Positions 51,826 through 64,000 of a DNA stretch of 64,000 nucleotides are shown here, one piece after another; the stretch's first letter is position 1; every line of letters starts with the position of its first letter. The position numbers and the translations under genes are program-made. The notes under the pieces were generated by a model. The model was given only the letters and a program-made list of their open reading frames with translations, made no database searches and had not been told where the DNA came from. This stretch comes from Candidatus Latescibacterota bacterium (GTDB taxonomy: Bacteria; Latescibacterota; UBA2968; GCA-2709665). Where the stretch lies: the NCBI GenBank assembly GCA_965203805.1, contig OZ241917.1, forward strand, positions 4,480,001 to 4,544,000, in the 5' to 3' direction.

Positions 51826-52605
51826 ATGGACTCGACACTACAACAGGAATATGACGAGAAGGGTTACTGCATCGCCCGCTGGGCGATTGACGCGGGTCTG
51901 GCCGCCGAAACGGTCGAGCACGTGCAGTGGCTGGTTGAAAGGCATCCGGACACGCGCCCCGAGCGGTTCCACCACAACCTGCTGGTGAACGACCCGTTCA
52001 TGCACCGGCTGGTCTGCGACGACCGGCTGGTCGACCTCGCGGCGCAGTTCATCGGTCCGAACGTGGCCATGTTCGGCGCGCACTATATCGCCAAGAAACC
52101 CGAAACCGGCCAGGCCGTCCGGTGGCACCAGGATGGGTCGTACTGGCCGCTGGAGCCGATGGAGGTGACCACCCTGTGGGTCGCCGGCAACGACTCAACC
52201 GTGGAAAACGGGTGCATGCGCGTCCTGCCGGGAACGCACACCCGGCGTTTATTGAAGCGTTCGGAGATGGTGGACCTGGATCCGGACAAGTACGTGCTCG
52301 GCATCGGGATGCGTCCGGACCAGATCGACGAGGCCGACGCCGTGGACGTGGTACTCGAGGCCGGGGATATCTCCATCCACCACCCCAATATCATCCACGG
52401 CTCCAACAGCAATACGTCCGACAAGTGGCGGGTGGGGCTCACCCTGCGCTATATTCCCACCAGCACCCGGGTGACGCGGAAAGAACAGCGGTCCATCCTG
52501 TGCTGCGGGGAGGTGGTCCCCGAGGTCGGAAACCACTATGTGCCGAGGCCGAAATACGTCGAGGGCGAACACATGGCCTTCGCCGGGTGCGAAGACTGGG
52601 TGTAG
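51826..52605 (+). CDS. PhyH family dioxygenase
   Basis: WHQDGSYW, ENGCMRVLPGTH and IHGSNSN motifs. Confidence 0.92.
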   Translation: MDSTLQQEYDEKGYCIARWAIDAGLAAETVEHVQWLVERHPDTRPERFHHNLLVNDPFMHRLVCDDRLVDLAAQFIGPNVAMFGAHYIAKKPETGQAVRWHQDGSYWPLEPMEVTTLWVAGNDSTVENGCMRVLPGTHTRRLLKRSEMVDLDPDKYVLGIGMRPDQIDEADAVDVVLEAGDISIHHPNIIHGSNSNTSDKWRVGLTLRYIPTSTRVTRKEQRSILCCGEVVPEVGNHYVPRPKYVEGEHMAFAGCEDWV

Positions 52606-52639
52606 GTAGGCCTTGGAGGGAGAACATCCTTCCCAAAAT

Positions 52640-53467
52640 CGAGGGTTTCCCTGCCCTCGCCGGCAGATGCGTGAGGCCTTGCCGCCGTCATTTCCGATAT
52701 GGAATTGGATGCAAGGGAAGCAGAAGGCCCTTGATGTGGAGATTTGTAGGTCCTGCGAAGTTCGAGGGCAGGGATGCCCTCGTTCCGGTATCTGGTAGCT
52801 CATGAACTGAAGTAGGGCAGAATTTCCGTTTTGCAGGTATTGATCGGTCACCTGTCCTTACCGGGTAACACGCAGGGCGTGCAAGGTGGCCAGAGGAAAA
52901 AACCGCGCACCTGCGGGGGGTCAATTCGCAGTAGCGATTCACGCCAAACAGGTGTTATTGGCGCAGTAGCAACGAATGCCTTTCCCGGGAGCGAGGGCAT
53001 CCCTGCCCTCGCCGGCAGATGCGGGGGGCCGTGGCGCCGTCATTTCCGACACAGAATTGGCTGCAAAGGAAGCGGTAGGCCCTTGATGTAGATATTGGCG
53101 GGTTACGCGATGTTCGAGGGCAGGGATGCCCTCGGTCCGGACACTGGTGGATCATGAATTGATGTAGGGCAGAATCGGCTCGGTGTCAGGGATGGCATAT
53201 CCGGTGTGGTGCGGATTATCACGACCTGAAGCAATTCCCGCGGATCTCTTCGTGGGAACGAGGGTTCCCCGGGAGCGAGGGCATCCCTGCCCTCGCCGGC
53301 AGATGCGCGGAGCTGTGGCGCCGTCATTTTCGAAATGGAATTGGGTGCAAAGGAAGCTGAAGGCCCTTGATGCGGAGATTGGCGGGTTACGTGATGTTCG
53401 AGGGCAGGGATGCCCTCGGTCCGGTATCTGGTAGCTCATGAACTGATGTAGGGCAGGGATGCCCTCG
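52640..53467 (+). repeat. REP-doublet (REPIN-like) array, units 1-3
   Basis: CGAGGGCA-TCCC-TGCCCTCG ... CGAGGGCA-GGGA-TGCCCTCG pairs at 52640/52763 (left arm degenerate), 52992/53115 and 53276/53399, plus a half copy at ~53448. Confidence 0.9.
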
Positions 53468-53511
53468 CTGTGGATACTGTTTAATCACGTGCTAATGTAG
53501 GGTAGGACACC

Positions 53512-54117
53512 TTGGGTTTCAGAGGACCGACATCACGCGTTAAGCCGTCAAGTAGACTTCACCGCACCCGTCTTCCGCACTTTGAAGCCGGGGAAGTTCC
53601 CCAACACGTTTGCTTTCGACTGGCGGACAGCTTGCCGCAACATCTGCTCCGACAATGGGAGCGAGACCTCGATAGACTTCAGGGAGCGGAACACCAGAAT
53701 CGTCGAAGGATCGAAGAGGCGCTGGATCAGGGCCATGGCGCCTGCTGGTTGCGCCTGCCTGCCATCGCCGCACTGGTGCGTGATGCCTTTCAGTACTTCG
53801 ATGGCCACCTGTATCATCTGCATGCATGGGTGGTCATGCCCAATCATGTCCACGTGTTGGCGACACCGCTTGGCAACCACTCGTTGTCTGGCATCGTACA
53901 CTCCTGGAAGTCGTACACTGCTAGCCATGCTAACAAGATGCTGAAACGCAAGGGGAAGTTCTGGCATGAGGACTACTTTGACCGGTTCATTCGCGACGAA
54001 GATCACTTCGGCGAAATTGTCAGATATATTCACTGGAACCCGGTGAAGGCAGGGTTGTGCACGGACCCTGAAGATTGGGAATGGAGCGATTTTTGCAATC
54101 GGTGTTCGCGGGATTGA
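53512..54117 (+). mobile_element. rayT: REP-associated tyrosine transposase (RAYT, Y1 HUH)
   Basis: RLPHF, VCFRLADSLP, WVVMPNHVH, FWHEDYFDRFIRD and YIHWNPVKAGL motifs. Confidence 0.92.
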
Positions 54118-54219
54118 TGGCACCCTGCCTGCGCCGAGTTCTGCTCGGCAGGCAGGTCCTGCCCTCGACGCGTAGCGCCAGGCGCGATCCGTTGGGTGCG
54201 AGGATGCCTTTCCCGGGAC

Positions 54220-54815
54220 CGAGGGCATCCCTGCCCTCGCCGGCAGATGCGCGGTGCCGTGGCGCCGTCATTTCCGATATGGTTTCGGATGAATGGGAAC
54301 GATAAGCCCTTGATGTGGAAATTGGCGGGTTACGCGAAGTTCGAGGGCAGGGATGCCCTCGGTCCGGTATCTGGTAGATCATGAACTGATGTAGGGCAGG
54401 TGTGCCGTCGGTCCGGATACTGGTGGATCATGTATTGATGAAGGGCAGAATTGGCTCGTTGTCAGGGATGGCACATCCGGTGTGGTGCGGGTTTTCACGA
54501 CGTGAAGCAATTCCAGCGGATCTCGTCCCGGGATCGAGGGTTTCCCGGGAGCGAGGGCATCCCTGCCCTCGCCGGCAGATGCGCGGAGCTGTGGCGCCGT
54601 CATTTCCAAAATGGAATTGGACGAATGGGAGCGACAAGCCCTTGATGCGGAGATTGGCGGGTTACGCGAAGTTCGAGGGCAGGGATGCCCTCGGTCCGGT
54701 ATCTGGTAGCGCATGAACTGATGTAGGGCAGGGATGCCCTCGGTCCGGATACTGGAGGATCATGTACTGATGAAGGGCAGAACCGGCTCGGTGTCAGGGA
54801 TGGCACATCCGGGGT
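54220..54815 (+). repeat. REP-doublet array, units 4-5 plus linker repeats
   Basis: Pairs at 54220/54342 and 54552/54674, half copy at ~54723; the linker GTGTCAGGGATGGCACATCCGG recurs. Confidence 0.9.
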
Positions 54816-54855
54816 GCTGGCGAATTCGCATTCGTAACGTCGATATCAATCCCAA

Positions 54856-58428
<3,573 letters not shown>

Positions 58429-58468
58429 CGGGAGGAAAACCGTTTCGAGAGGATCGCCAAATCGGTTC

Positions 58469-58507
58469 TTGACACCGTCCACGAAAATCGTTACCTTTTA
58501 CGTAATG
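58469..58507 (+). promoter_or_regulatory. sigma70 promoter with operator CGTTAC-N7-GTAATG
   Basis: TTGACA-N17-TACCTT; near copy of the higB promoter. Confidence 0.65.
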
Positions 58508-58556
58508 AAAATGGACATATTCACGCAGTTCCCGTCAAAACCGAAAGGTGGAACCG

Positions 58557-58814
58557 ATGCCGAAGAAAGAACGAGACACCGTCACATACGACCTCAAACA
58601 AGGCCGTGAAATAGTCTACCGTGGAACCACCAGCGATCCGGATGCGCGAGAGCGGAGCCACAGAGCAGAGGGTAAGGATTTCGATCAGCTGAAGGTAACA
58701 TCAAGACGAATGACGAGAGAGGGGGCGGAGAAGAAGGAAGCCGAGAATCTGGAGACGTACCGAAAGGGACACGGTGGAAGAAATCCAAAATACAACAAGG
58801 CGGAGGACGGATAG
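58557..58814 (+). CDS. Minimal standalone GIY-YIG nuclease-like protein
   Basis: VTYDL...IVYRGTT..PDARERSH...AEKKE...PKYN retains the Y/Y-G/R/H/E/N pattern. Confidence 0.7.
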   Translation: MPKKERDTVTYDLKQGREIVYRGTTSDPDARERSHRAEGKDFDQLKVTSRRMTREGAEKKEAENLETYRKGHGGRNPKYNKAEDG

Positions 58815-58946
58815 ATCTTCTACAACTCTCCCAGCACGGCTTCGCCCTGTTCAGCCGTAACCGAATGGGTGGCAGTGAACGCGTGAGCCCGTTCGATGTA
58901 CCAATCAATTCCCCCTAGAGGTGGAGTCGCGAAGGCCGAGCCTGAT

Positions 58947-58989
58947 CCCTGAGCCGGTGCCCTGAGCCTGTCGAAGGGTTGTCGAAGGG
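58947..58989. repeat. Nested CCCTGAGCCTGTCGAAGGG repeats
   Basis: CCCTGAGCC[ggtgCCCTGAGCCTGTCGAAGGGt]TGTCGAAGGG. Confidence 0.6.
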
Positions 58990-59206
58990 TCAGGCGACGG
59001 CTGATGCGGTAGTGGATTTCAACGCCTTATCGACATGAGAGCAGCGTGAATCGAGATGAACGCATTTTGCGTTATGATTACGCTATAAGACCCAGAAGGA
59101 CTGAAAGATCCCAAATCCAGACAGTTATGTAGCCCAAGTAACGAATCTTACCCCGCGCGATTTCTCAAACGAATCCTGTCCGCCAAATACCTATACCAAT
59201 CCTTCC

Positions 59207-59246
59207 TTGACGTACCCTCACCCAAATCGTTACCTTCCGCGTAACG
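59207..59246 (+). promoter_or_regulatory. higBA promoter/operator
   Basis: TTGACG-N18-TACCTT; palindrome CGTTAC-N7-GTAACG abutting the ATG. Confidence 0.7.
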
Positions 59247-59582
59247 ATGACAGTCGCCTTCAAAACCCGAAAGCTCGAAAAGACCTTAAACTCCGGGAGC
59301 CTCCTTGAGAGGACGTACGGAAAGAGCAGGGCTCGGGCAATCATGATGCGGCTCGCCGTTCTTGCGAACGCGCCGACACTCGCCGCCGTTCCTCACACAC
59401 CCCCCGAACGACGACATCAGCTTACAGGTGATCGTGAAGGGCTGTACGCGGTAAATCTCGATGATCGCGCGCGGCTGATTCTTGCGCCGAATCACGACCC
59501 TGTACCCGTCCTGGACGACGGCGGAATCGACATCCAACGCGTCACGGCAATTACGATCATGGAGGTCACAGACTATCACTAA
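59247..59582 (+). CDS. higB: HigB/RelE-type toxin (killer protein)
   Basis: FKTRKLEK...RRHQLTGDREGLYAVNL...RLI...EVTDYH. Confidence 0.88.
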   Translation: MTVAFKTRKLEKTLNSGSLLERTYGKSRARAIMMRLAVLANAPTLAAVPHTPPERRHQLTGDREGLYAVNLDDRARLILAPNHDPVPVLDDGGIDIQRVTAITIMEVTDYH

Positions 59583-59595
59583 AGGAGACCGAGTG

Positions 59596-60678
59596 ATGGC
59601 GACGAACCAGTACCGCCCCGACTACGCGGTTCCCCCTGGCTGGGTTCTCGCAGAGCGTCTCGAAGCCCAGGGCATTTCACATGCCGAGTTTGCAAGACGA
59701 TGCGACCGCTCGGGAAAGCTCATCAGCGAGATCGTTTCCGGAAAAGCCCCCATCGAGGCAAAGACTGCGCTTCAATTCGAGAGAGTACTTGGGGTCGATG
59801 CGGATATCTGGTTGGGAATTGAGAAGGACTATCAGTTGCACCAGATCAGGGAGTCTGAGGCCAGGCAAGCAGAAGCGTTAGCGGAGTGGGCGAAGACTTT
59901 CCCGCTCGGCGAATTGGCCAAACGAGGGGCGATTCGTACGCGCTCGGCCAGCAGAGAAGCGTATTCGGAACTGATGGCATTCTTTCGTGTGGCGTCGATC
60001 GACGCGTGGCATGTCAGATACGGGAAGGCGAACATCGCATACCGGCACTCGCCGAGTTTCAAAAGCGACGAAAACTCGCTCGCGACCTGGCTTCGACTCG
60101 CGGAGATCGACGCTGAAGCACAGAAGTGTAACGAATACGACAGGTCGGCCTTTATGGGTGCGTTGCGCCGGATCCGCAGGCTGACTCGCGCGCCATTCGA
60201 TGAGGCTCGTGATCAGACCCACGAGCTTTGCAACCACGCAGGCGTTGCGCTTGCGATGATCGAACCGCTACCAAAAGCCAGCCTTAGTGGCGCTGCGTGG
60301 TGGTTATCCCCCCGCAAACCCGTCATCGCCCTTAGCGCGCGCCACAGGACCGACGACCACCTCTGGTTCAGTCTGTTTCACGAGGCTGCACACATCCTTA
60401 TTCACAGCAAGAGAGACGTTTTCGTCGACGAAGCCAAACCCGGCGGGGCCGACCTCGAAACAGAGGCGAATGAATGGGCCTCGCACTTCCTTGTTTCGCA
60501 GTCGAACTGGCAGCAATTCGTAGATGAAGGGAGATTTACCAGTTTGGAGATTCGCGATTTTGCCGAAGAACAGGGAATCGCGCCGGGTATTGTTGTTGGA
60601 AGACTTCAACATGAAAGGCACATCGGGTGGGATCGTCTTAACGATCTCAAAGTGCGTTTGGAGTGGGTTGAGAATTGA
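59596..60678 (+). CDS. higA: HigA-type HTH antitoxin fused to an ImmA/IrrE metallopeptidase
   Basis: PDYAVPPG..L.E.LE HTH and WFSLFHEAAH (HExxH). Confidence 0.88.
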   Translation: MATNQYRPDYAVPPGWVLAERLEAQGISHAEFARRCDRSGKLISEIVSGKAPIEAKTALQFERVLGVDADIWLGIEKDYQLHQIRESEARQAEALAEWAKTFPLGELAKRGAIRTRSASREAYSELMAFFRVASIDAWHVRYGKANIAYRHSPSFKSDENSLATWLRLAEIDAEAQKCNEYDRSAFMGALRRIRRLTRAPFDEARDQTHELCNHAGVALAMIEPLPKASLSGAAWWLSPRKPVIALSARHRTDDHLWFSLFHEAAHILIHSKRDVFVDEAKPGGADLETEANEWASHFLVSQSNWQQFVDEGRFTSLEIRDFAEEQGIAPGIVVGRLQHERHIGWDRLNDLKVRLEWVEN

Positions 60679-60973
60679 TGAGAGAGTCAATGAGAAACAC
60701 CTCTTGCAGTGCGCGGGACCGTAGCTCCGTTTTGGTTTATGGACTTCATCCCTCGCAGTTTTTATCAAACTGAACTTCGGAACTATGCTGAGGAACTTCC
60801 GTGTCTAAGCTGCGATTTCACACCGTCGATACGTCCGTCGGATAAAGCTATTATTCACATAGCAGTTCCTCTTCAGAAAACCAACTAAACTGTAAAATCT
60901 TGGTGTCTTCGTCTGTGGCCAGAGAGTGAAAGAAAAGCCGACAGTGCGGCTAGAGTTGGGTAAGAGGACAAGC

Positions 60974-61333
60974 ATGACGCGAGAAATTACAGTTCGAGTA
61001 TTTGACATCATTGGTGGTCCGCTTTGCGTATCTACCAGCGACGGCCAACGTCTGTACGACAGGATTGCTCCACTCTTGAGGACAGGGACGCCGGTCGTTC
61101 TTTCCTTCGAACGGATAGAGATTTTCGTCGCGGCCTTTCTCGACGCGGCGGTGGGTCAGCTTTACGGCGAGTTACCCGACGATAGCATCAGTGCATTGCT
61201 CTCGTTTCGCGATCTGGCGGATGACGACCGTGAGATGCTGGACCGTGTAATTGAAAACGCAAAACTGTACTTCAAGACCCCCGAAGATTTCGATCGCGTG
61301 TGGCATGAGGAGCTGGGCGTTGAAGAAGAATAA
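60974..61333 (+). CDS. STAS-like DUF4325 protein
   Basis: CVSTSDGQRLY...VVLSFERIE...AFLDAAVGQLY. Confidence 0.8.
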   Translation: MTREITVRVFDIIGGPLCVSTSDGQRLYDRIAPLLRTGTPVVLSFERIEIFVAAFLDAAVGQLYGELPDDSISALLSFRDLADDDREMLDRVIENAKLYFKTPEDFDRVWHEELGVEEE

Positions 61334-61393
61334 GGCGTACGACGTGGTTGCAAATCGGTTTAGCGGAAGTGAGACGTTTTTGCTCGATGCGAA
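61320..61393 (+). pseudogene. 5' remnant of a PIN-domain gene
   Basis: TTG start overlapping the STAS gene; reads KKNKAYDVVANRFSGSETFLLDAN (PIN first strand), then is cut. Confidence 0.55.
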
Positions 61394-61728
61394 CGCTCGG
61401 CGAAACTCATCAGCGAGATCATCTCCGGGAAAGCTCCGATTGAGCCGAACACGGCCCTTCGGTTCGAAAGGGTGCTGGGGGTCAGTGCGGACATCTGGTT
61501 GGGTGTTGAAAAGGACTATCAGATACATCAAATCCGGGAAGCCGATCCGAGGGTAGTTTAGCGCATACCGGTGCCGAAGGTGCGTTCAGGAGTCCGGACG
61601 TATTTCGTTTTGCCGACGAGCGGAACATAGCGCCCGGTATCGTCATCGGAAGGCTCCAGCACGAACGGCATATCGGGTGGAACCGGCTGAACGATATGAA
61701 GGTGCGTTTGGAGTGGGTTGAAAATTGA
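61394..61728 (+). pseudogene. Internally deleted paralog of the higA-ImmA gene
   Basis: 61394-61548 matches higA ~59708-59860 and ~61600-61728 matches the higA 3' end including GTGCGTTTGGAGTGGGTTGA.AATTGA. Confidence 0.85.
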
Positions 61729-61747
61729 TGCCCGAATGAGCAAAAAG

Positions 61748-61767
61748 AAACGCCCCTTTCGGGGCGT
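61748..61767. terminator. Hairpin/terminator
   Basis: ACGCCCC-TTTC-GGGGCGT preceded by an A-run (U-tail on the minus strand). Confidence 0.5.
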
Positions 61768-61915
61768 CGGGCCGGAGATGCTATCTCCGGCGGGGTGATA
61801 CCTAAATAATAGGGGATTATAACTTAAAGTGCCAAAAAGTTCTTGCCATCGCCTTTGGATATAGTTATATTTAACTGTAAACAATGACGATACGATAAGA
61901 GAAAGGTGGTTGGCG

Positions 61916-62860
61916 ATGGCACATGAGGCACCTGGAAAGCATTATCGAGAGGGCTTGTCGTTGGTGAAACTGTTTGACATGTTTCCTGATGATGCATCTG
62001 CAGAAGCATTTTTCATGCAGGCAAGATGGCCTGATGGTCCTGTCTGTCCGCACTGCAATTCTGACAATATTCAGGTTGGCATTGCTCACAAAACCATGCC
62101 TATGCGGTGTAGGAGGAACGGTTGTCGGAAGCGTTTTAGTGTGAGAGTTGGTACGGCAATGGAGTCTTCAAAACTGGGATATAGGGTCTGGATTATAGCT
62201 ATTTATCTGATGACAACCAGTTTGAAGGGCGTGTCTTCTATGAAACTTCACAGAGACTTGGAAGTAGCTCAGAAGAGTGCCTGGCACCTGGCTCATAGAA
62301 TCAGGAAGGGTCTTGTTTCTGGTAGTGAGTTTTTCTCTGGACCGGTAGAGGTTGATGAAACGTACGTCGGGGGCAAAGAGTCGAACAAGCATGCCAGTGA
62401 GAAGTTGAGAGCAGGACGTGGGACTGTGGGGAAGGCCCCAGTCGTTGGAGCTAAGGATAGGGAGACAGGTCGTGTGAAAGCAGAGGTGTCTGAGAATGTT
62501 ACTGGTGAGAATATGAGAGACTTTATTCGCCGCAGTGTTCGGCAGGGTGCAGAGGTTTTTACTGACGAGTCTACTGTTTATAGAGGACTGTCAGGGGTAC
62601 ATCATAAGCAGGTAAAGCACAGTGCTGGTGAGTATGTAAATGACCTTTGCAGTACAAACGGCTTGGAAAGCTTTTGGTCTATGCTGAAGCGTGGTTATAA
62701 TGGTACGTATCACAAGATGTCTGTAAAGCATCTTGCAAGGTATGTAAATGAGTTTGCAGGTAGACACAACATCCGCGAGTTCGACACGCTGGCGCAGATG
62801 GAAAAGGTTGCTCAGGCTATGGTCGGCAAGCGACTCAAATACAAGGAACTGACAGCATGA
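61916..62860 (+). CDS. IS1595 family transposase (zinc ribbon plus ISXO2-like DDE domain)
   Basis: RWPDGPVCPHC, CRRNGC, VEVDETYVGG, VFTDE, NGLESFWSMLKRG and HKMSVKHL motifs. Confidence 0.95.
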   Translation: MAHEAPGKHYREGLSLVKLFDMFPDDASAEAFFMQARWPDGPVCPHCNSDNIQVGIAHKTMPMRCRRNGCRKRFSVRVGTAMESSKLGYRVWIIAIYLMTTSLKGVSSMKLHRDLEVAQKSAWHLAHRIRKGLVSGSEFFSGPVEVDETYVGGKESNKHASEKLRAGRGTVGKAPVVGAKDRETGRVKAEVSENVTGENMRDFIRRSVRQGAEVFTDESTVYRGLSGVHHKQVKHSAGEYVNDLCSTNGLESFWSMLKRGYNGTYHKMSVKHLARYVNEFAGRHNIREFDTLAQMEKVAQAMVGKRLKYKELTA

Positions 62861-63054
62861 CTAAGGTTGTTGAAGGTCGCGTAGATCCAATCGAATTTGA
62901 GAAAAGAGCAGTCGAACGAGATCTCGCTGCTTTGTCGAAAGCCCTGGCTGCGATCTTAAACGAGACTCGTGCTTCTTCATCTTTTCCAAAAAAGACTGTA
63001 TGGGGTCGAATATCTTCGTGGTTTCGTCACCCCCTTCGAGATCAGAAACTGTAA
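62857..63054 (+). CDS. Small hypothetical protein A1, antisense to B1
   Basis: ATGA overlap with the transposase stop; weak similarity to 63284..63475. Confidence 0.4.
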   Translation: MTKVVEGRVDPIEFEKRAVERDLAALSKALAAILNETRASSSFPKKTVWGRISSWFRHPLRDQKL

Positions 63055-63172
63055 GAGAGAGAGCCACATTATACCTTGAAAGAACTTCGGCAATATCGTC
63101 TATTTCGTAGTCCTCAAACTTAGACAACTGATTTTCAATTCTCCTTTTACTCACGAGGTTTTCCCCTTTCAT
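62861..63172 (-). CDS. Small helical hypothetical protein B1
   Basis: Paralog of 63288..63560 (KF.D...AL..TV..L...DP...FLE...LS..QRD). Confidence 0.6.
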   Translation of the reverse strand: MKGENLVSKRRIENQLSKFEDYEIDDIAEVLSRYNVALSLTVSDLEGGDETTKIFDPIQSFLEKMKKHESRLRSQPGLSTKQRDLVRLLFSQIRLDLRDLQQP

Positions 63173-63283
63173 GAAAAAAGCCCTGAGGGCGTAGCATACC
63201 AGTCTCCTTGTAGTTTAAACTCTAACGAAGAAAGTAGGCGGCGTGCTTTTCCAGACTCCGCAGGAACGAAGGGAGTTGATAGC

Positions 63284-63475
63284 GTGGTCAAGACTGTCGA
63301 TGACCGTCAAGAACGCCGGCGCGAAGTGTTGAATGCAGAGTTTTTAAAAAATCGCGCTGCGGTGAAGAAAGGGCTTGAACAGTTTGTATCTCATCTACCT
63401 GAAAGTCCAACTCTTCAAGAAACGCCTTTACGGGATCTGGTTTCTGAGATATATCGTCGAGTTCTAAGACGGTAA
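63284..63475 (+). CDS. Small hypothetical protein A2, antisense to B2
   Basis: AAGGGAG RBS before GTG; same register as A1. Confidence 0.4.
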   Translation: MVKTVDDRQERRREVLNAEFLKNRAAVKKGLEQFVSHLPESPTLQETPLRDLVSEIYRRVLRR

Positions 63476-63560
63476 ACTGTAGGGCGGTGACGAACGCTCC
63501 TATAGAGTCCTCAATGCCTCTGAATAGATCATCGAATTTGGGACCCTGTTTTCTGGCCAT
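63288..63560 (-). CDS. Small helical hypothetical protein B2
   Basis: AGGAG RBS; paralog of B1. Confidence 0.6.
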   Translation of the reverse strand: MARKQGPKFDDLFRGIEDSIGAFVTALQFTVLELDDISQKPDPVKAFLEELDFQVDEIQTVQALSSPQRDFLKTLHSTLRAGVLDGHRQS

Positions 63561-63629
63561 TGAGGCTCCTCTGGGTAGAAAGAAGGGAAGAGAAGTGGAT
63601 TTTCCGGAGGAAGTTTACTGGATTGATTG

Positions 63630-63950
63630 TTACCTCAGTGTATCAATCCTGTCAGTAAACCTGCTTCTGGCCTTATTATGAGCCAGGATTCTGGAATAAT
63701 CGCCACCACCTCTGTAAGAATACATGTTCGCTCTGCTTCTTATCCTATTTCTCGCATCTCTTGGAAGGTGGTTAGTAATTTCTGCAACAATAGTTTCCAG
63801 AAATACAACCTGACCCTCCAGCTCTGTTATTCTTTGCTGGTCAGAAGCATTTGAAGCTCTTCCCGGACCGGCAAGAATAAGTACAGAAACCAAAAGGACA
63901 ACGAGAGTAATACCTACAATGCTTTTGAGGAGAGTGCCGAACCCTTCCAT
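63630..63950 (-). CDS. Hypothetical protein with an N-terminal TM/signal segment and short coiled coil
   Basis: AGGAGG RBS before ATG 63950; ITLVVLLVSVLILAG. Confidence 0.55.
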   Translation of the reverse strand: MEGFGTLLKSIVGITLVVLLVSVLILAGPGRASNASDQQRITELEGQVVFLETIVAEITNHLPRDARNRIRSRANMYSYRGGGDYSRILAHNKARSRFTDRIDTLR

Positions 63951-64000
63951 CGCAAGCCTCCTAACGATGATGTGGACATTTTTGGTACCTGGCAAAAGGT

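Follow-up and report, generated by a model that had tools for sequence, protein, structure and literature searches.

RAYT proteins are HUH/Y1 single-strand DNA nuclease-transposases, and the locus described here is best read against a small number of arrangements already known around their genes. According to the available sections of the account of Pseudomonas fluorescens SBW25, REPINs occur there as tandem repeats that include flanking sequence, with one such cluster beside each RAYT, the clusters comprising as many as four REPINs and one REP over >700 bp (Bertels & Rainey 2011, PMC3116915). The E. coli REPtron, as set out in the sections consulted, consists of a tnpA_REP gene bordered by BIMEs, and the structure of its protein is available as 4ER8 (Ton-Hoang et al. 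2012, PMC3333891). Intragenic REPs are likewise on record (Di Nocera et al. 2013, PMC3733652, in part).

The locus examined here lies within a 64-kb window, the whole 64,000-nt stretch of DNA that was analysed, and is very probably a REPtron, in which an ordered cluster of cognate REP hairpins, organised as REPINs, flanks a RAYT. An earlier note on this DNA had proposed that the array goes beyond a simple REP cluster, a claim that was dropped because ordered tandem REPIN clusters with flanks beside each RAYT are what the SBW25 paper describes in the sections cited above.

Organisation of the array and its RAYT gene

The array extends over 52629-54819 and consists of five co-oriented units around an intact RAYT gene (Table 1). 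A five-copy direct-repeat family of 192 nt was found in the region where the earlier note had placed its units, with starts at 52629, 52981, 53265, 54208, and 54540 and spacings of 352, 284, 943, and 332 nt. Each unit follows the same plan of forward hairpin, spacer, inverted hairpin, and tail, and in its REPIN the hairpin CGAGGGCA-loop-TGCCCTCG is present twice, in inverted orientation and ~102 nt apart. The identification of the units as REP doublets was borne out by inverted arms of 24 nt, which are 96-100% complementary and separated by 102-103 nt, and by a conserved stem running from hairpin to hairpin. Matches to the hairpin pattern number 12 in the 64-kb window, every one of them within 52640-54742, against 0.07 expected by chance (none of 100 shuffles of the window gave 12).

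The left foot is GGAG or GGAC and the right foot GGTCC; in unit 1 the left hairpin is a variant with two mismatches that lacks the foot. Ten of the 12 hairpins have GGAG, GGAC, or GTTC feet, and GTAG stands only at the start of those at 53448 and 54723, two extra right-type hairpins. Tandem tails could be recovered with TRF at 54344-54448 and 54676-54780 (period 49 bp, 2.1 copies), and a third, partial tail repeat follows unit 3; the 49-bp period takes in part of the hairpin itself. The recurring linker was also confirmed, as linker B of ~106 nt in two copies and one partial copy, and no further copies were found elsewhere in the genome by blastn.

Table 1. Features of the RAYT locus, in window coordinates.
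Feature	Position	Strand	Evidence or remark
PhyH-family dioxygenase gene, left border of the locus	51826..52605	+	Pfam PF05721, 122 bits
Unit 1 (REPIN): variant left hairpin 52640-52659, spacer, right hairpin 52763-52782, tail	52629..52820	+	
Linker A	52821..52980	+	second copy, with unit 1, ~36 kb downstream (window-equivalent 89042-89202)
Unit 2 (REPIN): hairpins 52992-53011 and 53115-53134, then tail	52981..53172	+	
Linker B, copy 1	53166..53271	+	blastn, 88.7% vs copy 2
Unit 3 (REPIN): hairpins 53276-53295 and 53399-53418, tail; right part carries extras	53265..53500	+	
Unit 3 extras: GTAG-variant right hairpin 53448-53467, then partial second tail		+	
RAYT (TnpA_REP) gene, 201 aa, TTG start probable	53512..54117	+	NF047646, Y1_Tnp
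33-nt palindrome, second unrelated repeat family, arms CCTGCCTGC / GCAGGCAGG	54124..54156	no strand	
Unit 4 (REPIN): hairpins 54220-54239 and 54342-54361, then two tandem 49-bp tails	54208..54448	+	
Linker B, copy 2	54440..54547	+	blastn
Unit 5 (REPIN): hairpins 54552-54571 and 54674-54693, GTAG-variant 54723-54742, two tandem tails	54540..54780	+	
Linker B, partial copy 3	54772..54819	+	blastn, 89.6% over 48 nt
hmaA: SNF2 helicase with NOV_C nuclease-type end	54856..58428	+	PADLOC HmaA 1654 bits, full length; Pfam domains

The open reading frame within the array is a RAYT, as had been claimed: it scores 104.2 bits on the curated NCBIfam model REP_Tyr_transpos (NF047646, cut-off 80) and 36.3 bits on Pfam Y1_Tnp (PF01797, cut-off 23). 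A PDB sequence search returned E. coli TnpArep 4ER8 as the sole match (E 3.7e-6), and in the alignment to this protein both the HUH motif NHVHVL and the catalytic-Tyr motif YIHWNPV are intact in the translation. Matches to the NCBIfam model and to 4ER8 begin only at residues 82 and 101, respectively, the N-terminal part being longer. The 33-nt palindrome inserted shortly after the RAYT stop codon has 105 copies in the genome; it is missing at this spot in the related genome G001, and a relative's contig (X6) skips 34 nt here.

Fold, spacer, and growth of the array

A single unit folds into a 24-bp long-range stem (DNA fold -51.9 kcal/mol, z -5.7), and across an alignment of 51 units, whose members were picked by likeness to the query or by exact hairpin match, 25 base pairs are conserved, with 97-99% of cells paired. 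As a single strand, the two inverted hairpins pair into one long stem. By analogy with E. coli and Pseudomonas, the RAYT would bind single-stranded DNA at the folded hairpin and the adjoining foot before cutting, and may move REPINs in trans.

The earlier note had also raised the possibility that the units form a transcribed array of structured RNAs working with the nuclease, for which guides or cofactors would be conceivable roles. Taken as RNA, single units of either strand do give more stable folds than shuffles (z -3.3 and -5.2), and they share the orientation of the RAYT both here and in G001. However, RNAalifold over the 51 units gives no spacer helix, so that the fold signal is the hairpin-to-hairpin stem only, and two candidate structures, with the spacer read as a degenerate palindrome or local hairpin, pair in just 58-72% of cells. 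The suggested covariation check came out no better than shuffled controls, with spacer values of 0.093 and 0.077 against shuffled means of 0.092 and 0.076 (reached by 198 and 199 of 500 shuffles). No Rfam family was matched at threshold, and at E values up to 1 only sub-threshold matches of 16 bits were seen, to a 44-nt model and covering bare hairpins. A scan for consensus promoters and terminators likewise found none, where the sigma-70 consensus may not suit this phylum, and dispersed copies are scattered over both strands at sites remote from any RAYT, with RAYT-less genomes having them too. With no spacer helix, shuffle-level covariation, and no Rfam family, the structured-RNA reading is very improbable; the spacer is conserved through descent from common masters rather than through folding or coding.

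There is next to no chance that the central patch of the unit is a variable acquired insert, whether CRISPR-spacer-like or diversity-generating. Its starting point, that the spacer centre differs most, is true among the five local units and fails in the genus-wide alignment, in which the left third of the spacer is less conserved than the centre. Moreover, the patches align base for base into two haplotypes and one recombinant, the haplotypes being common to G001, and the spacing between units is irregular. The patches, which the earlier note had proposed comparing with phages, gave no match in 50,697 phage records, nor did the whole 2.2-kb region. A CRISPR-like array was accordingly rejected on the irregular spacing, the homologous patches, and the lack of a phage match.

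The five units share 84-92% mutual identity and are therefore not recent copies; for unit 1 against the rest of the island's units the range is 84-89%. Whole modules recur as well. The 383-nt module of unit 1 plus linker A is 89.3% identical to its copy ~36 kb downstream (91.9% for linker A alone), and identity is 91.2% between 54393-54620 and a 228-nt stretch comprising tail, linker B (copy 1), and the left hairpin that follows. Array size also varies by species, with 3 + 2 units here and 1 + 3 in G001. Judged from the sequences, the array has expanded by segmental duplication of modules made of REPIN, tail, and linker. Of the proposal of RAYT-driven amplification, the local amplification is supported by modules that return, linkers included, at 89-92% identity; catalysis by the RAYT is hypothetical. 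If E. coli and Pseudomonas are a guide, unequal recombination or slippage between identical 20-24-bp hairpins could have made the array beside the gene grow and shrink, with RAYT-catalysed strand exchange as a possible contributor. Copies diverge by 8-17% or more, and the family therefore now looks old and slow; near-identical copies were not seen, within-genome spacer identity averaging 65-84% with a peak of 90%.

Distribution among relatives and the Hma island

Orthologues of the RAYT were found in 5 other genomes at 76-92% identity, with one per genome where present and both catalytic motifs retained in those examined; by these sequence comparisons, the gene is single-copy and vertically inherited. 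The unit itself was matched in 14 of 14 same-genus genomes, on both strands and mostly over the REPIN without the tail, and in none of 39 genomes outside the family. Hairpins range from 5 to 124 per genome within the genus and from 0 to 3 in 7 genomes of other genera. The genome-wide count that the earlier note had called for put this genome at 27 hairpins and 9 doublets, a small number by the standards of REP families and half of it clustered. All nine doublets are on the + strand and represent only about four independent loci; they fall either side of the GC-skew minimum at ~4.43 Mb. Relatives have units on both strands. The relatives with the same hairpin are Candidatus Latescibacterota MAGs and some Gemmatimonadota MAGs.

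The hairpin flanks all 6 orthologous genes, against 0 of 14 loci of more distant paralogues. Every one of the 6 orthologous loci has a right-type hairpin ahead of the start, at a distance of 5-93 nt, and 5 of the 6 have a left-type hairpin 0-102 nt downstream. Hairpin abundance does not track RAYT presence among same-genus genomes: counts made with a strict stem pattern, and with orthologues called from one protein query, were 27, 29, 13, 10, and 13 in the five genomes with an orthologue (10-29) and 5-124 in the 10 without, including 87, 80, 124, and 114. These bigger populations in RAYT-less genomes bear on whether REPIN persistence depends on the RAYT.

The gene order PhyH-RAYT-hmaA is common to five species. 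In three others (G002, G004, and G005), ~228 nt lie between PhyH and hmaA in place of the RAYT array, and this stretch retains a left hairpin and the beginning of a spacer. In an 8,688-nt contig from a relative (X4), position 52634 is followed by 17 other letters and then by 54161, a junction that agrees with the RAYT-less arrangement of these three species and could, taken alone, be an assembly artefact; contigs from the four sequencing runs are short and broken at repeats. Presence or absence of a whole RAYT array at one syntenic site is a useful test feature for REPIN biology. For a single REPIN, a clean pair of filled and empty sites was not found; the orthologous intergenic region of one dispersed unit in G011 holds a single right-type hairpin, the rest being too diverged for an insertion boundary.

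The RAYT locus opens the Hma defence island, of which hmaA is the first gene. A 47% identical paralogue of the RAYT is present elsewhere in the same genome, in frame within the Hma methylase gene hmaB, 13 kb downstream, together with its hairpins, and in four genomes a paralogue is in frame at a second hmaB site. In G016, which belongs to another genus, it is the RAYT orthologue that lies in frame within hmaB, with translated hairpins on both sides. These in-frame insertions in the methylase, which fall outside the window, and the link to the Hma island may surprise specialists. A literature search for RAYT joined to methyltransferase gave only unrelated papers among the matches listed, the available part of the BREX preprint makes no mention of RAYT, IS200, or transposase, and the sole transposase mentioned in the accessible sections of the Hma paper (PMC11232893) is an IS3. 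An HUH survey, as far as its available text goes, set long fusion proteins aside without analysis.

The array might on this basis be regarded as a functional cis-element of the island, and its RAYT lineage as tied to Hma and not merely lodged there neutrally. It could act on hmaA as a promoter, attenuator, insulator, or stabiliser of the mRNA, or it could be a site that the methylase or helicase of the island recognises. Pointing that way, the array stops 37 nt short of hmaA, the RAYT is co-oriented with hmaA in 5 species, 14 of the 27 hairpins of the genome sit within 45 kb in the Hma island, and the insertions in hmaB, with hairpins in G016, involve both the paralogue and the orthologue. However, PhyH and hmaA are adjacent in three species that have neither RAYT nor array, both of which are therefore dispensable for hmaA. 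The hma region is, moreover, a known insertion hotspot (PMC11232893, available sections), REPs cluster by their RAYT in bacteria with no defence link (PMC3116915, likewise in part), and RAYT domains lodge in other kinds of protein too. A cis-acting function of the array is therefore decidedly unlikely, and the broader proposition, that the RAYT lineage and its hairpins are coupled to the anti-phage system and are not neutral lodgers, is improbable. Were such coupling functional, a defence system would have the HUH nuclease or the hairpins as a working component or as an addictive parasite, for example through co-expression with hmaA, as a single-strand DNA nuclease module, or with the hairpins as recognition or regulatory sites.

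Comparison with described systems

Read as a REPtron, the locus has an arrangement already known from Pseudomonas and E. coli, and it offers a clean example outside the Proteobacteria, in an uncultured bacterium, whose perfect-stem, non-GTAG hairpin and long conserved spacer are test features for REPIN biology. With SBW25, as far as the cited sections describe it (PMC3116915), it shares the inverted REP doublet as the hairpin-forming dispersed unit and a similar cluster size. It differs in phylum, in hairpin sequence and foot (none here of the GTAG type beyond the two extra hairpins), in the greater divergence of its copies, and in numbers, the SBW25 family counting 1,422 REPs against 27 hairpins here.

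The organisation is a BIME-like mosaic, in which REPs alternate in orientation, linkers recur, and tandem copy number varies between genomes, although its sequences bear no relation to those of the E. coli BIME types and the likeness is one of organisation only. In the E. coli REPtron, too, tandem copy number differs between genomes, the gene is lost in some lineages while REPs stay, and REP number does not track the presence of the gene (PMC3333891, sections consulted). According to the same sections, the E. coli enzyme requires a GTAG foot and a mismatch in the stem, both of which the REPs there possess, whereas the stem here is perfect, the foot is GGAG, GGAC, or GTTC, and the RAYT has a longer N-terminal part.

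Like an IS200/IS605 element, the locus places an HUH/Y1 transposase gene between subterminal hairpins, in the order right hairpin, RAYT, left hairpin at 5 of 6 loci. Unlike such elements, it has a single orthologue in each genome, in a conserved location, instead of multiple identical copies, and the dispersed element is a doublet without a gene. As for intragenic REPtrons, the RAYT of this locus is itself free-standing and intergenic, whereas the G016 orthologue and the paralogue in this genome are the ones carried in frame within hmaB.

The RAYT gene and its repeat array

At positions 52629-54819 of the window, a ~192-nt unit is present five times in one orientation, around a gene for a REP-associated tyrosine transposase (RAYT). 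In order, each unit has a hairpin on the left, CGAGGGCA-TCCC-TGCCCTCG, then 102-103 nt of spacer, a right hairpin (the left one inverted, with the loop GGGA), and a tail. Hairpins and feet together form 24-nt inverted arms with 96-100% complementarity, and in single-strand folds each unit's two hairpins join in one long stem, the hallmark of a REPIN. Matches to the hairpin pattern in the window number 12 (0.07 expected), all of them inside the array. Behind units 4 and 5 the tail recurs in tandem with a 49-bp period, as it does partially behind unit 3, and a ~106-nt linker is present in two and a half copies at the array and nowhere else in the genome. Repeat analysis of the window bore out an earlier note's description of five units with inverted hairpins, tandem tails, and linkers, save in minor details: unit 1 carries two mismatches in its left hairpin, two additional right-type hairpins start with GTAG, and the five units are just 84-92% identical.

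The same note's assignment of the open reading frame to the RAYTs was confirmed by profile matches (see table). HUH and tyrosine motifs were found, and the sole PDB sequence match was E. coli TnpArep (4ER8). The frame has 203 codons, TTG first, and alignments of orthologues start at residue 4-8; an AGGA a few bases 5' of the start could be the ribosome-binding site.

Coordinates of the array, its gene, and associated features (window positions unless another locus is named)
Feature	Position	Description
Unit starts	52629, 52981, 53265, 54208, 54540	co-oriented
RAYT ORF	53512-54117	NCBIfam REP_Tyr_transpos, 104.2 bits (cut-off 80); Pfam Y1_Tnp match
Second palindromic repeat	54124-54156	~33 nt, arms CCTGCCTGC / GCAGGCAGG; just past RAYT stop
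IS1595 transposase	61910-62860	between Hma genes
hmaB	L120:2977-6684 = G000:C1:4546977-4550681	~3 kb past window's end; DUF1156 + D12 methylase, 1235 aa
hmaB frame of G016 (different genus)	G016:C1:3069096-3074819 (L126, L024)	~1,400 codons; two RAYT inserts in two different loops

Distribution and origin of the repeats

The genome-wide count suggested by the earlier note gave 27 strict hairpins in the genome holding the window (G000), making nine doublets (five at the array, two in the 45 kb that follow, and two elsewhere), with the remainder singlets. A search of the genus's 14 other genomes matched the unit in all of them (70-86% identity), on both strands and mostly across the doublet without the tail; 39 genomes from outside the family gave no match. 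Hairpins number 5-124 per genome within the genus and 0-3 in seven genomes of the family's other genera. A scan of species-representative genomes with an exact 20-mer returned 79 loci, 60 of them from Candidatus Latescibacterota or Gemmatimonadota-titled MAGs; the other 19 hold a single hairpin apiece. The unit is a repeat dispersed across the genus.

Orthologues of the RAYT (76-92% identity) were found in five other genomes. The unit's hairpin borders all six orthologous loci on both sides, of the right type 5-93 nt ahead of the start codon in all six and of the left type 0-102 nt past the stop in five; it flanks the RAYT at none of the 14 loci with more distantly related paralogues. A PhyH dioxygenase gene and hmaA neighbour the RAYT in five species, and unit numbers up- and downstream of it are three and two here versus one and three in the relative G001. 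In three relatives (G005, G002, and G004; loci L144-L146), the PhyH-hmaA gap is ~228 nt with no RAYT and retains a left hairpin plus the start of a spacer, and one relative's contig has a comparable short form. This RAYT-less stretch is either a deletion derivative of a REPtron (a RAYT bordered by its own REPs or REPINs) or the ancestral state. Genomes with a RAYT orthologue hold 10-29 hairpins and those without hold 5-124. The largest populations (80-124) occur in genomes without the orthologous RAYT, and four orthologue-less genomes (G009, G004, G005, and G010) have only a C-terminal RAYT remnant, adjoining a unit.

Entire modules recur, linkers included: tail, linker B, and next left hairpin (228 nt) are 91.2% identical between the two sides of the RAYT; the unit 4 and unit 5 modules are 90.7% identical; and the stretch from unit 1 through linker A to the left hairpin after it has a second copy, 89.3% identical, 36 kb downstream. 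Conservation is as high in linkers as in units, which is consistent with segmental duplication and not with separate insertion of each unit. Judged from these sequences, the array fits an origin by such duplication, in which the RAYT may have taken part. Tandem tails begin and finish within the hairpin, as would be expected of unequal exchange between hairpins.

The earlier note had also raised the idea of a structured-RNA array with a central variable patch. For the covariation check it proposed, 55 units were collected by query likeness or exact hairpin match, making a biased sample; four aberrant ones (L012, L092, and two from L106) were set aside, and the 51 others, all non-identical and from at least 10 genomes, were aligned. 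The sole structure kept by RNAalifold was the nearly invariant 25-pair hairpin-to-hairpin stem. Two candidate spacer structures paired in 58-72% of cells, with covariation scores equal to those of shuffled controls, and an Rfam search of the unit returned no family; the structured-RNA reading is therefore unsupported. The variable patch fared no better: in all five units the central patches are homologous to one another, comprising two haplotypes and one recombinant that G001 has too, and a phage search with them gave no match. The least conserved part of the spacer genus-wide is its left third. Spacer identity within genomes averages 65-84% and peaks at 90% in this biased sample, and no recent burst of units was seen in it.

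The second palindrome and the Hma genes

The second palindrome family has 105 copies in G000 and 0-112 in relatives. Neither G001 nor a relative's contig has the copy past the RAYT stop, and hmaB includes an in-frame copy of 27 nt that adds nine residues. In the 11 genomes that have a RAYT paralogue of 42-50% identity or an in-frame insert, copies number 7-112, and in the other 11 they number 0-11.

The gene past the array is hmaA of the Hma defence system (PADLOC, 1654 bits), with hmaB and hmaC 13 and 31 kb downstream; the three genes span ~34 kb (window 54856-64000 and, past its end, L120 and L121). Between them lie defence-type matches (PD-Lambda-2_B, PD-T4-4_A, Ppl, HEC-01, and TmtA) and a Schlafen/AlbA_2 protein; gene insertions inside hma are known (PMC11232893). 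Over 181-391 comparable N-terminal residues, HmaA is 96-97% identical between species (window 54856-56355 against relatives' loci L022-L026), the adjoining PhyH 87-90%, and the RAYT 76-92%. The cumulative GC skew of G000 has its minimum ~50 kb before the window (around 4.43 Mb) and its maximum near 0.82 Mb, so the replichores are very unequal if these extremes mark origin and terminus.

In G000, a RAYT paralogue (47% identity) lies in frame in hmaB at residues 207-461, its HUH and Tyr motifs intact; hmaB orthologues lack this stretch in G001, G013, G005, and G002 and keep it in G008, G011, and G016. The first insert of G016 hmaB is the same paralogue; the second is the orthologue of the window RAYT (79% identity), and the hairpins on either side of it are translated, as RGQDALDP and RERGHPAL. 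A protein database search with the in-frame insert matched 637 long proteins (679-2162 aa). Of 120 matches listed, 91 carry DUF1156, 18 more carry other DNA-methylase domains (11 PF01555, 6 PF02384 or MmeI-type, and 1 PF02086), and a few carry NOV_C, PF06253, or PF04551; most of those listed are DNA methyltransferases of several families. The hmaB inserts prompt the idea of a tie between this RAYT lineage and Hma, which we consider quite improbable; they lie outside the window and leave the identity of the array locus unaffected.

Comparison with known REPIN and REPtron systems

REPINs were described by Bertels and Rainey in 2011 (PMC3116915) and the REPtron by Ton-Hoang et al. in 2012 (PMC3333891), who report that tandem BIME number varies, that some strains have lost the gene and kept the REPs, and that REP number differs little with or without the gene. 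Di Nocera et al. in 2013 (PMC3733652) used GTAG or CGTC tags to class REPs and reported REP clusters and intragenic REPs. On every structural point tested, the present locus agrees with this known kind except in two: it is without the GTAG foot, and hairpin number does not track RAYT presence. The ordered, polarised array, which the earlier note had taken to go beyond a REP cluster, is ordinary for the REPtron/REPIN-cluster class, and the locus is a member of that class: a real, well-described feature of known kind, newly found in an uncultured lineage.
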